A DNA stretch of 64,000 nt from Alphaproteobacteria bacterium (GTDB lineage Bacteria; Pseudomonadota; Alphaproteobacteria; JAUHZC01). Below, piece by piece: positions 53,429 to 57,028 of the stretch. The notes under the pieces were generated by a model. That model ran no database searches and was not told the origin of the DNA. It saw only the letters and a list, made by a program, of their open reading frames with translations. Each line of letters begins with the position of its first letter. The first letter of the stretch is position 1. Location: NCBI GenBank assembly GCA_030425805.1, contig JAUHZC010000002.1, positions 159,020-223,019 of the forward strand. Reading direction: 5' to 3'. Position numbers and translations under genes: made by a program.

Positions 53429-56400
53429 ATGAATAATATACTGAAAATTTCATTTTTAATACTTATTGTATTATCTAACAACCTCCAAGCTCAAATAACC
53501 AAAGAAATTCTGCACAATGCCATTAGCAAGGTATATGCATTAGAAGAACCTGCTGCATCATCATCCCCTTCTTCATCTTCGGCTGGGCAAGCGGCCAGTG
53601 CAGCAGCGGCAGCAGCCGCTCAGAGTGATGAGGAAGAAGAACCTGTTGCCGCATCATCATCCTCCTCTTCTTCATCTTCGGCTGGGCAAGCGTCCAGTGC
53701 GGCAGCGGCAGCAGCCGCTCAGAGTGGGGCCGCAGCCACCTTAATTGATTACAAGCTCTACGGATCAATCCTTCTAGGGGCATTTGCCATTGATACAAGC
53801 CTTGTTGAAAACATCCGATTTTCTGGGAATTATCAACCAAACTATGAAAATGGAGAGAGAAAATACGGTAAAGACTCTTCAGACGACCCGCACTGGAATT
53901 TAACCAAACTCCTTTTTCCCTCAGCCAATGGAACTTTTAATATTGGCAGTCATTTTCAAGATAATCTGTCTTATATGCTGAATGGCATGACACCAGAGAA
54001 TAAAATTGCAGCTTTAGCACGCATCATGGCACATATTGCTGATCCTGTTGCTAAACCAGGTTCTTTGGCTGACGATATGATTCAGAAGCTTAAAAGTAGC
54101 CATAGGAAAAAAATCAATAAAGCTAAAAACAAAAAGCAAAAAACAGTTTTTGATTTTTTGACGGAAGCTCTTGATGCTGCGATTGAAGCAGAAAAAAAGC
54201 CTGGGAGTTTCTATCCTCTGGGGACAGCTGAGCAAATTTTCATGGCTTTTGTGATGATGCACTTCAATACTCTTGAGGAGTTAGAAAGTTTCATGGAAAA
54301 AGTAACCCAAACACTAAGCCACACAGACCGTATAATGCTGAAGGGTTACGGTCAGGCTGATGACTTAATTAAAACATACCAGGTGTATTATAAAGACATC
54401 TATTCTCAACCAGTCCCATACACTTTCGGTAATGGCCTTCCCAGCAATGGCCTAGCAATCTCCCCTTCAGGCAAAGGTTATGCAGACTGTGTTGAAACTG
54501 CCATACGCCAGTTTCTTAACATAGCTCTTTTTAATCCCGAAACCAAAACATTTGAGTTAAGCCAAGCATTAAGCAATAACGAAAGCCTAAATCATTTCTT
54601 TACCATCCAAACACCAGGCCGGGCTTCCGATGGTTCCACACCCATACGGACTGAATTTTCAAATGTTGTGAGCGCCCTAAACGAAGAGACACAAGCAGCT
54701 GCAAGCGAATCTGTAGCAGCCCCTCCTTCGGGTTCCAATAAAATTGTCTATGTGCAAGGTAATTTTGAAGTTGATACTGGACATTGGAACTTTTTAAAAG
54801 TGCTTTCAAAGATTACAGAACTTCCCCTTCCAAACATCAAATCTGATGAGATATCCCCTGAGTTAGTCTTTGAGTGGTATAAAAAAATTCTTGAAAAGTT
54901 AAATACCAATTATGATTTTACGGTGGAAAGTGTTAGTGACAAAACACTAAAAAAACGTCGCTATGGTGATAGAGATGTTGATATTTTCGGTGATGTAAAA
55001 ATTAGTTTTATTCCAAAAGGACAGGGCAAAACAGGCTTTAGCTTTATTGTTCATATGGAAAGCGGCCACGGAGAAATTCAATCCTTGACAGCATTAGGAG
55101 AGGGAGAAGAAAAGACACTGTCAGAAACTAGTTTCCTGAATAGACTAAATGGGGCAGCTCTATCAGCCTATAACCTTTCAACTTATGCTGCCCTTGATGC
55201 ATTACCACTTCCTGCAGATTATCCAATACTCCACTCCATATTTCCAAAAGCTCTTACAAGTAACACGGCGCTCATTGAATCAATTTCAGCTTGCTTGAAA
55301 GCCTTCAATAAAACTGAATTTGACTTCAGTCATATGATATCAGTAATCTCAGATCAGATTTCACTCAGCGATGAGCACACCAGAAACAAGTTTATTACTG
55401 ATGTAACTGCTGTGGTTAAGGATATTATCTACTCATATGTTGACGATAGTCTCTCTACAGATGTTCACGCTATTATCCCCCCACATGAAATGGAGAGGTT
55501 ATTATCTCTCATCCCAGCTTTAAGCCTGAAAGAATCATTATTAACCACTTTAATTCTTCCTCAAATGCCTCAGTTGACGAATCTGAGAGTGATTGAAATC
55601 AAGGGGGAACAGGAAACCAAAGAACTTACTTTTAATGCCCCTCATTTGAAACAGATCCGCATCCTTAATACAAATATTGAGGAGGTCCAAGGGCTTGAAA
55701 ATTCTCATGAGATTGAAAAAATTTGGATACAAGACAATCCAAACCTGTTGGGGAAGCGTATTAAAATCTCTCCTTATATTCCCGAGGAAGGGATTGGGTA
55801 TGATCGAGGTATACGGATTGCAAATCAACAAACAGGGAGTGGAGAGCTTGTCGAAAAAGAGAATCATATTCTTCGGCTTCTAGACACTCTACAAAGTAAG
55901 TTTGGTGATTCAGCTGCGGCTACAGCGAGTTCTTCATCTTCATCATCCTCTTCTTCTGCATCTTCGGCTGAGCAAGTGGCCGGTGCGGCAGCAGCCGCTC
56001 AGAGTGTTGAGGAAGAAGAAACTGCTGCTGCATTATCTTTATTATCCTCTTCTTCTTCGTCATCGTCATCGTCTTCTACTCTTCGCCCCGAATCCGTATG
56101 GACATATTGGAGAATTGCGAGTGTAACTCATTTTATAGGGAAGATGAGAAGGCACATAGAAGATTACGTCAGCCGAGGAGGGACTTTCAATGAGGAGTTT
56201 TACAATTATTTAGCAGAGCGCTATATGGCAGAAGGCTATAAGCCCTACTCTGGAACGCTTCCTTCTGATTCAAATGGAATTCTTGTTCTTGGGAGCGAGA
56301 GACTTACAATTCCTCGTGGAAGCTCCCATCCTGACCCTTTGCACAGTTGGCTTAGAAGTAACCCCAATCAAAAAACCTTAATTTATCTAAAAACGATAGA

Positions 56401-57028
56401 GATCGATAACAAGTTTTGTATAGAGAGGCCTCCATATGTCAACAGAAGCTTTAATAAAATCTTTGACATGCTTGCAATAGTATCTCAAGCTGAAAACAAG
56501 CTAACCCCTCGACCTGACACAAGTGGTTTTTCAGATAGCTTCTTGACTGCCGGGCTTTTGGATTTATCTGGTCTAAGCAATCTTAGAGATATTGATCTGT
56601 TAGCCTTTCTAAAAGCGTTCAAAGGAAAATCTGTTGATTTGTCTGGGTTCACAAACCCTGTAAAAATATATGGTAATTTCCTGGTTGGGGCTTTGCATTT
56701 AGAATCTATCATCGGTGGAAAGTTAAGTGTTAAGCCAGCTGAAGATGGAGATTATGGCGAATTTATGGGGCAAGCCGGCTATAACCAACAAGGTTCCCGT
56801 ACATTTAAAGCTCGACCAATCAGTATATATCTTGAAAATAATCCTACATTTAAAGGACGCGCAGGCATCTGGCAAAACTTAGCTAGACTTAGCAGTTACC
56901 CTCCCAAGCTTGTTATTAAAAGGGGTTACCCAAGGGGATACATCTCAGATCCAATTCCACTAGATTCTACATCTTCAAATAAAGGTTGTGGCATGCAAGG
57001 AGCTGTTAAGTGTTGTACAGTATGTTGA
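53429..57028 (+). CDS. giant secreted eukaryote-like protein: poly-Ser/Ala/Glu tracts, OTU/papain-like Cys and His motifs, LRR-like segments, Cys-rich C-terminal tail
   Basis: ATG at 53429 (TTG at 53417 also possible). Signal peptide MNNILKISFLILIVLSNNLQA. GYADCVETAIRQF resembles the OTU catalytic Cys motif. GHWNF is a candidate catalytic His. Two stretches are LRR-like: LTNLRVIEIKG...LKQIRILNTNIEEVQGLENSHEIEKIWIQDNPNL and LDLSGLSNLRDIDL. C-terminus is GCGMQGAVKCCTVC. Confidence 0.65.
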   Translation: MNNILKISFLILIVLSNNLQAQITKEILHNAISKVYALEEPAASSSPSSSSAGQAASAAAAAAAQSDEEEEPVAASSSSSSSSSAGQASSAAAAAAAQSGAAATLIDYKLYGSILLGAFAIDTSLVENIRFSGNYQPNYENGERKYGKDSSDDPHWNLTKLLFPSANGTFNIGSHFQDNLSYMLNGMTPENKIAALARIMAHIADPVAKPGSLADDMIQKLKSSHRKKINKAKNKKQKTVFDFLTEALDAAIEAEKKPGSFYPLGTAEQIFMAFVMMHFNTLEELESFMEKVTQTLSHTDRIMLKGYGQADDLIKTYQVYYKDIYSQPVPYTFGNGLPSNGLAISPSGKGYADCVETAIRQFLNIALFNPETKTFELSQALSNNESLNHFFTIQTPGRASDGSTPIRTEFSNVVSALNEETQAAASESVAAPPSGSNKIVYVQGNFEVDTGHWNFLKVLSKITELPLPNIKSDEISPELVFEWYKKILEKLNTNYDFTVESVSDKTLKKRRYGDRDVDIFGDVKISFIPKGQGKTGFSFIVHMESGHGEIQSLTALGEGEEKTLSETSFLNRLNGAALSAYNLSTYAALDALPLPADYPILHSIFPKALTSNTALIESISACLKAFNKTEFDFSHMISVISDQISLSDEHTRNKFITDVTAVVKDIIYSYVDDSLSTDVHAIIPPHEMERLLSLIPALSLKESLLTTLILPQMPQLTNLRVIEIKGEQETKELTFNAPHLKQIRILNTNIEEVQGLENSHEIEKIWIQDNPNLLGKRIKISPYIPEEGIGYDRGIRIANQQTGSGELVEKENHILRLLDTLQSKFGDSAAATASSSSSSSSSSASSAEQVAGAAAAAQSVEEEETAAALSLLSSSSSSSSSSSTLRPESVWTYWRIASVTHFIGKMRRHIEDYVSRGGTFNEEFYNYLAERYMAEGYKPYSGTLPSDSNGILVLGSERLTIPRGSSHPDPLHSWLRSNPNQKTLIYLKTIEIDNKFCIERPPYVNRSFNKIFDMLAIVSQAENKLTPRPDTSGFSDSFLTAGLLDLSGLSNLRDIDLLAFLKAFKGKSVDLSGFTNPVKIYGNFLVGALHLESIIGGKLSVKPAEDGDYGEFMGQAGYNQQGSRTFKARPISIYLENNPTFKGRAGIWQNLARLSSYPPKLVIKRGYPRGYISDPIPLDSTSSNKGCGMQGAVKCCTVC

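Follow-up and report, generated by a model that had tools for sequence, protein, structure and literature searches.

Locus, gene product and protein family

Here we describe a gene in a 64,000-nt stretch of DNA (the window) from an Alphaproteobacteria bacterium (GenBank assembly GCA_030425805.1, contig JAUHZC010000002.1, positions 159,020 to 223,019 of the forward strand). The gene occupies window positions 53429..57028 on the plus strand as an uninterrupted open reading frame (ORF) with an ATG start, encoding 1199 aa plus a stop codon, much as an original prediction made from the letters of the window had proposed; an alternative TTG start lies at 53417, four codons 5' of the ATG, and the identical 1199-aa protein (P0001) is present in an NCBI assembly, on a 358-kb contig. 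The product is a member of a large uncharacterised family of exported, modular, probably effector-like proteins, and the domain that defines this family, which is not described in Pfam, NCBIfam or PDB and is therein new, carries an invariant Cys that probably marks an active site. The layout of the protein is summarized in Table 1.

Table 1. Features of the gene product, with window positions and residue numbers.
Feature	Window position	Strand	Residues and remarks
Signal peptide, Sec-type	53429..53494	+	aa 1-22, MNNILKISFLILIVLSNNLQA|Q; predicted cleavage site
Short conserved N-terminal segment	53495..53545	+	aa 23-39, the family's 'AFKGV..F' in the alignment consensus; linker 1 lies between this segment and the domain
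Ser/Ala/Glu low-complexity linker 1	53546..53740	+	aa 40-104; two 99-nt tandem units
Conserved alpha+beta domain, family-defining putative thiol-enzyme domain	53741..55123	+	aa 105-565
Cys motif KGYADCVETAIRQF	54473..54514	+	aa 349-362; Cys354 codon 54488-54490
VDTGHWNF (His452)	54770..54793	+	aa 448-455; not a catalytic candidate; flanking E447, G451 and N454 conserved
ESGHGEIQ, conserved His547	55058..55081	+	His547 codon 55067-55069
Helical connector	55124..55516	+	aa 566-696; AF2 model helices 471-588, pLDDT mostly 87-94
Leucine-rich repeat array 1	55517..55822	+	aa ~697-798; 4-5 units of ~22 aa
Ser/Ala/Glu low-complexity linker 2	55904..56086	+	aa 826-886; DNA-level copy of linker 1 unit (69%, 84%)
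C-terminal region	56087..56983	+	aa 887-1185
Two degenerate BspA-type leucine-rich repeat units	56540-56713	+	aa ~1038-1095, inside the C-terminal region
Cys-rich tail GCGMQGAVKCCTVC	56984..57025	+	aa 1186-1199; candidate CaaX box C1196-T-V-C1199; upstream Cys1195, Cys1187

A word-index homologue search with the whole protein returned just 2 relatives, P0002 (42% identity) and P0003; the same kind of search with an 11-sequence core profile gave 1 match only, and with the C-terminal 314 aa it gave none, not even the protein itself. The family was delimited with a HMMER profile of three core regions (aa 105-700, free of leucine-rich repeats (LRRs)), with which an exhaustive search of cluster representatives recovered 431 clusters (E<=1e-3), 87 of them also at E<=1e-30. 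Members are 800-1300 aa long; the profile match starts 45-55 residues from the N-terminus, directly after a typical signal peptide, and the C-terminal halves are LRR arrays above Pfam thresholds (LRR_4, LRR_8, LRR_5). The N-terminal 450-550 residues correspond to no Pfam family. Scans of the full protein against Pfam, NCBIfam and PDB sequences yielded noise only (Tipalpha, TrmB, MamP) together with a weak LRR match to LRRC23, the conserved domain itself matched nothing in these three collections, and a literature search found no paper describing the domain family.

All named members are annotated 'hypothetical protein' and come from Candidatus Odyssella, whose host is Acanthamoeba, or from alphaproteobacterial metagenome-assembled genomes (MAGs); they include WP_175282083.1 (Candidatus Odyssella thessalonicensis), OJW51438.1 (Alphaproteobacteria bacterium 41-28) and proteins of other alphaproteobacterial MAGs. 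Two members, P0002 and P0011, lie on one contig, so genomes carry paralogues. Homologues are placed among housekeeping genes, one of them inside the cox cluster of GCA_001897795.1, and no conserved gene neighbours were found at the homologous loci. One member, P0130 (L084, 10001-12152), has 426 aa only, is followed by a separate 223-aa LRR_6 ORF and adjoins a P2-like phage tail gene cluster; it looks like a split or truncated copy.

Conservation of a candidate active site

Conservation was counted in the 150 best representatives aligned to the profile. Cys354 is invariant (150/150) and sits in a family motif F-x-D-C-x-E-x-x-x-R-H, of which Asp353 (143/150), Glu356 (143/150) and Arg360 (145/150) are also strongly conserved. 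Beyond this motif, Arg130 (136/139), Asp149 (139/139), Asp153 (123/139), Asn340 (137/148) and an LFPSxxG segment at aa 162-168 are conserved across the family. The original prediction had likened the Cys motif to the OTU catalytic Cys box and had paired it with a His about 110 aa downstream. The Cys itself stands, as an invariant residue at a helix N-terminus; the OTU-box likeness of ADCVETAIRQ is unsupported by any profile comparison. The proposed dyad partner fails: His452 lies 98 residues after Cys354 and was ruled out as a catalytic residue, position 452 being Phe, Tyr or aliphatic in almost all relatives (Phe 74, Tyr 16, Met 9, Ile 8, Leu 8), although its neighbours Glu447 (107/123), Gly451 (109/123) and Asn454 (120/123) are conserved. 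The conserved His is instead His547, found in 118/120.

The family is poor in Cys (0.7% of residues). Because Cys354 is a lone invariant Cys without a conserved partner Cys in such a family, catalysis is favoured over a disulfide, and from its conservation and modelled position we take its motif to be a probable active-site marker.

Structure models and comparison with OTU enzymes

Two AlphaFold2 (AF2) models were built from a 75-sequence family alignment. The model of aa 105-825 has a mean predicted local distance difference test score (pLDDT) of 83.8 and a predicted template modelling score (pTM) of 0.87; that of aa 105-565 reaches a mean pLDDT of 86.2 with a pTM of 0.87. Residues 105-325 are helical, hold the invariant R130, D149 and LFPS residues, and are followed by a beta-hairpin. 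Cys354 is the first residue of a helix (model residues 250-263), after which come several more helices, and a five-strand antiparallel meander ends in a strand (model residues 443-452) that starts with His547; both residues fall within blocks of pLDDT >90. Further on, a helical connector (aa ~575-692) leads into an LRR solenoid (aa ~697-798). Across the family, the connector region (aa 566-696) is conserved in just 52/150 relatives.

A Cys at a helix N-terminus combined with a His at the start of a strand is a hallmark of papain-like thiol enzymes, OTUs included. The modelled placement of Cys354 and His547 is consistent with papain-like geometry, as read from secondary-structure positions, and the domain probably has the catalytic architecture of a papain-like enzyme. 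OTU deubiquitinases such as OTUB1, Simkania SnOTU and the enzyme of PDB 7bu0 (which we take to be Legionella LotC/Lem27) likewise place the Cys at a helix N-terminus, with a helical lobe behind it, and the His where the last strand of their C-terminal beta-meander begins. In the fold comparison, the aligned length was 122-141 residues for OTUs versus ~70 for E2-type structures; the four structures are related to one another, so that their matches amount to about one observation. This likeness, sought with OTU as the hypothesis set beforehand, is suggestive and far from proof. The domain may be a very remote OTU relative. It differs from OTU enzymes in its motif (F-A-D-C-V-E...R-H, as against D-G-N-C-[LF]-[FY]-R-A), in the lack of any sequence or profile similarity, in ~220 extra conserved residues before the Cys, in large variable insertions and in having no conserved H-x-D/N. 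The family would operate in the manner of known LRR-coupled Cys effectors and is similar to OTU enzymes in catalytic geometry; it falls outside OTU membership as defined by sequence. OTU effectors are common among amoeba symbionts, Odyssella included (PMC3482391).

Leucine-rich repeats and low-complexity linkers

Both LRR-like stretches that had been noticed in the sequence proved sound. The protein contains tandem units of 20-29 aa with the LxxLxLxxN pattern of a beta-strand/turn solenoid, and array 1 is genuine; Pfam LRR_4 remains sub-threshold in the query (E=0.026), and relatives exceed the Pfam LRR thresholds. Beyond linker 2, aa 887-1100 show homology to residues 858-1051 of P0002 (BLASTP, 28% identity, E=1e-12), where the units LDLSGLSNLRDI and VDLSGFTNPVKI of the query align to a regular BspA-type array that Pfam recognises in P0002 as LRR_5 (E=1.8e-15). 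In the query, about 2 degenerate units are left of this second stretch, and the stretch itself has no Pfam match.

LRR protein expansions exist in the amoeba symbionts Amoebophilus and Protochlamydia/Neochlamydia. Those expansions are likewise large, divergent and lineage-specific, with copies scattered among housekeeping genes; the present proteins differ from them in an N-terminal Cys/His domain that is specific to this alphaproteobacterial family and is not an F-box, U-box or BTB domain.

The poly-Ser/Ala/Glu spacers described by the original prediction are present as linkers 1 and 2. The spacers are DNA-level copies of one another, with 69-94% identity between the stretches at 53556-53627, 53655-53726 and 55941-56012, and repeat expansion or duplication within the gene therefore probably gave rise to these low-complexity linkers. 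P0113, P0147 and P0003 (Logan assemblies) also have Ser/Ala-rich insertions, both where modules meet and in surface loops of their conserved domain. Part of the family thus shows recurrent low-complexity insertion, which is not unique to the gene in the window.

Another duplicated piece of the gene lies upstream of it. An intergenic stretch at 53314-53365 on the plus strand, extending to ~53381, is a 52-68 nt copy (87% identical) of segment 54536-54587 of the gene itself, which comes directly after the Cys motif; the copy would encode PETRTFELSQVLSRNER. It was probably left behind by a paralogue that has decayed or by a recombination event.

Export signal

The proposal that the protein is secreted gained support as far as its export signal is concerned. 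A heuristic hydropathy check showed the N-terminus to have an n-h-c signal-peptide layout (MNNILK / ISFLILIVL / SNNLQA|Q) with small residues at -1 and -3. Most of the 45 family N-termini listed share this layout, typically ending in ..SSSAMA|K, and a stricter hydropathy cut-off flagged 77/150 family members as signal-peptide carriers. A lipoprotein was ruled out, as the signal peptide is without a lipobox Cys.

A Cys-rich tail and possible host lipidation

Four of the 7 Cys residues of the protein fall in its last 14 residues, a clustering with P ~6e-7. The end of the tail, ...STSSNKGCGMQGAVKC-CTVC, fits the C-a-a-X pattern with a1 free, an aliphatic a2 (V) and Cys as X, and is preceded by a flexible polar stretch. 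On this pattern, ...KCCTVC makes a plausible lipidation signal of the CC-aaX type. Human farnesyltransferase farnesylated one CaaX box with Cys as X (CWFC) in a yeast reporter (PMC11152559), and farnesylation of bacterial CaaX effectors by the host is established for Legionella AnkB (PMC2916131) and others. The host-lipidated CaaX effectors Legionella AnkB and PelC/PelE and Salmonella GtgE have a Cys at -4 and an aliphatic a2, as in CTVC. These effectors are injected by type IV or type III secretion systems (T4SS, T3SS), in contrast to the Sec signal found here, and the tail is unconserved in the nearest homologues of the present protein. Salmonella SifA, also a host-lipidated CaaX effector, has the tail CLCCFL, and an extra upstream Cys is also found in the tails of H-Ras, N-Ras and RhoB, where such residues are palmitoylated second signals. 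Cys1195 and the upstream GC(G)M of the present tail resemble the second signals of H-Ras, N-Ras, RhoB and SifA.

The original prediction had drawn its analogy from Legionella CaaX effectors. These are Dot/Icm-translocated, whereas the Sec signal peptide of this family implies another export route, and in this respect the analogy does not hold.

Across the family, a Cys at -4 occurs in 4/150 members against 1.05 expected (P ~0.02), in the tails CTVC, CVIR, CCMQ and CTIS with an aliphatic a2, and at other C-terminal offsets a Cys occurs in 0-2 of 150 members. These counts give a weak hint that a Cys at -4 has been acquired recurrently in the family. A sorting signal of the MYXO-CTERM/GlyGly-CTERM type, considered for the GCG...CC tail, was ruled out, since the motif is followed by neither a hydrophobic nor a basic segment and NCBIfam gave no match.

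Paracaedibacteraceae, Odyssella among them, inhabit the cytoplasm of the host (PMC11909080). The named family members come from cytoplasm-dwelling amoeba symbionts, so that host prenyltransferases could reach a secreted protein; for such a symbiont, crossing the outer membrane alone would presumably put the protein within their reach.

Interpretation and alternatives

Our best explanation, which we hold to be moderately likely, is that the gene encodes a Sec-exported, modular, effector-like thiol enzyme with LRRs, whose CC-aaX tail is lipidated by the host in this copy. The protein would be exported from the bacterium by Sec and released. Cys354 and His547 would make up a thiol active site of the papain-like kind, closest to the OTU arrangement. 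The target bond would be an acyl bond (peptide or isopeptide) on a host protein, which the enzyme would either cleave or transfer, ubiquitin or a ubiquitin-like protein (Ubl) being the leading candidate substrate. The downstream LRR arrays would select the target, and flexible Ser/Ala/Glu linkers, inserted in this copy by DNA repeat expansion, would separate the modules. The Ras/RhoB-like CC-aaX tail, presumably added in this copy, would be farnesylated at Cys1196 in the host cytoplasm and possibly palmitoylated at Cys1195 and Cys1187, pinning the enzyme to a host membrane. Taken on its own, deubiquitinase or Ubl-protease activity is less likely than not.

Speaking for this explanation are the size and architecture of the family, the conservation of C354, H547, D149 and N454, the AF2 models, the named Odyssella members, the tail, the low guanine-plus-cytosine (GC) content of the gene and the many orphan ORFs with signal peptides in the window. 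Holosporales/Paracaedibacteraceae are ancient obligate protist symbionts whose host interaction is poorly understood, and a 2025 review states that experimental data on secreted effectors of Holosporales are lacking (PMC11909080). The gene exposes a candidate effector family of at least 431 clusters that combines predicted export with a Cys/His centre that is invariant and LRR arrays that vary. This copy may offer an example of host lipidation beyond the Legionella and Salmonella paradigms. Should the domain be a diverged OTU, the OTU superfamily would be extended; if it is not, the domain would represent a new enzyme fold.

A number of results weigh against this explanation. As for the enzyme, the kinship with OTU, CE or papain folds that the original prediction envisaged found no sequence or profile link: Foldseek of the model against PDB gave no match at E<=0.001, the family profile had 0 matches among all PDB sequences, and hhalign of a 118-sequence family profile against OTUB1 (sequence verified) gave a probability of 0.1%, its sole match being a spurious one of 14 residues on a non-catalytic Cys. 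Pfam searches at E<=10 with the query and 11 core-domain members returned neither OTU (PF02338) nor Peptidase_C65, nor any recurrent family. The OTU Cys-loop motif (D-x-x-C, typically DGNC[LF][FY]RA) is absent from the family, as is the third residue of an H-x-D/N arrangement, position +2 after His547 being E 48, Q 15, K 14, Y 7 and D 7. At position 361 (54509-54511), moreover, where 131/150 members have His, this protein and its near relatives (P0002, P0003, P0030) have Gln; on this substitution, the subclade with Gln361 may differ in mechanism or regulation. As for delivery and anchoring, the Sec signal predicts export to the periplasm only, so that a further step across the outer membrane would be needed, and the tail, present here and fitting CaaX/CC-aaX as the original prediction had it, is missing in the closest homologues P0002 and P0003. 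Finally, the symbiotic or intracellular lifestyle of the source bacterium is taken from named relatives, because the GTDB representative genomes contain nothing closer than ~60% identity to its GltX (best matches 60-62%, Rhodospirillales and Sphingomonadales; Candidatus Finniella of the Paracaedibacteraceae 58%), which places it only as a deep alphaproteobacterium.

The domain could also be a thiol enzyme that is neither a protease nor a deubiquitinase, such as a Cys-dependent ubiquitin ligase, a transglutaminase/deamidase or an acyltransferase acting on an LRR-selected host target, which we consider rather unlikely. SidC uses a Cys-His-Asp triad, and IpaH/NEL and XopL are LRR-coupled ubiquitin ligases. 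An invariant Cys/His pair coupled to LRRs would suit an enzyme of this kind, as would the lack of a strong match to any protease fold and the large conserved N-terminal part (R130, D149, D153, LFPSxxG), which has no counterpart in minimal OTU domains. IpaH/SspH (NEL) and XopL resemble the present protein in fusing an LRR recognition module to a bacterial-specific catalytic domain; they differ in carrying a T3SS signal where a Sec signal peptide is found here, and here a conserved His accompanies the Cys. Against such an activity, there is no Pfam match to NEL, HECT, SidC, transglutaminase or another enzyme family, the E2-type structural matches are shorter than those to OTUs, and the LRRs lie C-terminal of the catalytic domain, so that the order of enzyme then LRR is the reverse of that in IpaH.

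A bolder proposal, which we think unlikely, sees in the N-terminal domain of 450 residues a class of thiol enzyme that is new at the level of the fold (e.g. a Ub/Ubl ligase or transferase with LRR substrate receptors) and not a diverged OTU. The family would then be the main, hitherto unrecognised effector arsenal of Paracaedibacteraceae/Holosporales, with Sec-dependent export straight into the host cytoplasm, and individual copies would have captured Ras/RhoB-type CC-aaX tails.

Less probable still is a role at the bacterium's own envelope or surface without host delivery, the protein being a periplasmic or surface LRR protein, an internalin-like adhesin or a cell-wall-active Cys/His peptidase, and the tail a disulfide or metal-binding knot or an accident. 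Such a role would agree with the classical Sec signal peptide across the family, with the unconserved tail and with internalins topping the LRR matches, and no secretion-system gene or chaperone was found adjoining the gene or its homologues. The family is, however, expanded and highly divergent with variable LRRs, as is typical of host-interaction proteins, its named members come from cytoplasmic symbionts, and the tail is a close match to the eukaryotic CC-aaX pattern, all of which weigh against an envelope role. That the conserved Cys and His are structural and the protein a non-enzymatic scaffold or LRR binder is very improbable: no sequence method detected enzyme homology and no third catalytic residue was found, but one invariant Cys (150/150) in a Cys-poor family, with no conserved disulfide partner, the textbook positions of the Cys (first in a helix) and the His (first in a strand), and a cluster of invariant polar residues all speak for an enzyme.

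Genomic setting

The window is ordinary chromosome, with the nuo operon, ATP synthase, H+-pyrophosphatase, gltX, prs and tRNA-Asp. The gene has a GC content of 39-43%, compared with 45-52% for flanking housekeeping genes. No paralogues of it were found in the window, and a plasmid origin was rejected, as a tblastn search gave zero matches in PLSDB. Family motifs scanned against the GTDB representative genomes produced 116 pattern matches, of which none was confirmed, so that this set contains neither the source genome nor that of P0002.

Downstream of the gene, a 281-nt direct repeat (97% identity) occupies window positions 57107-57387 and 58357-58637. The gltX gene (58357-59775, minus strand) thereby has a second copy of its 3' end 1250 nt away, which forms a gltX' fragment ORF at 57107-57511, and the 969-bp insert between the repeats carries an orphan signal-peptide ORF (57552-58277, 241 aa). 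The region looks like an insertion at the gltX 3' end with a long target duplication.

Upstream, a 658-aa orphan ORF (50517-52493, plus strand) has a signal peptide, Gln/Tyr-rich and Glu/Lys-rich regions and a coiled-coil-like C-terminus, and contains about 5 tandem 45-nt (15-aa) repeats of DDRYYDDRRDPLPPR at 51588-51812; it has no Pfam match. Further orphan ORFs with signal-peptide-like starts lie at 1253-2926(-), 7007-8305(+), 11186-13333(+), 18472-20442(+), 62046-63947(+) and 26415-26999(+), and no Pfam match was obtained among those of the window that were scanned. Some of them (e.g. 62046-63947 and 18472-20442) contain poly-Glu, Ala/Ser/Gly-rich or basic low-complexity runs. These ORFs suggest a genome rich in exported lineage-specific proteins, in which low-complexity linkers are a genome-wide habit.

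Two other large proteins are encoded in the window on the plus strand. The ORF at 29098-32403 specifies a STAND-type protein of 1101 aa, in which an NB-ARC ATPase domain (E=2.9e-15) precedes many TPR repeats, and that at 8400-11108 a sodium:solute symporter (SSF) domain fused to a histidine kinase (HisKA + HATPase_c), a CbrA-like sensor architecture.

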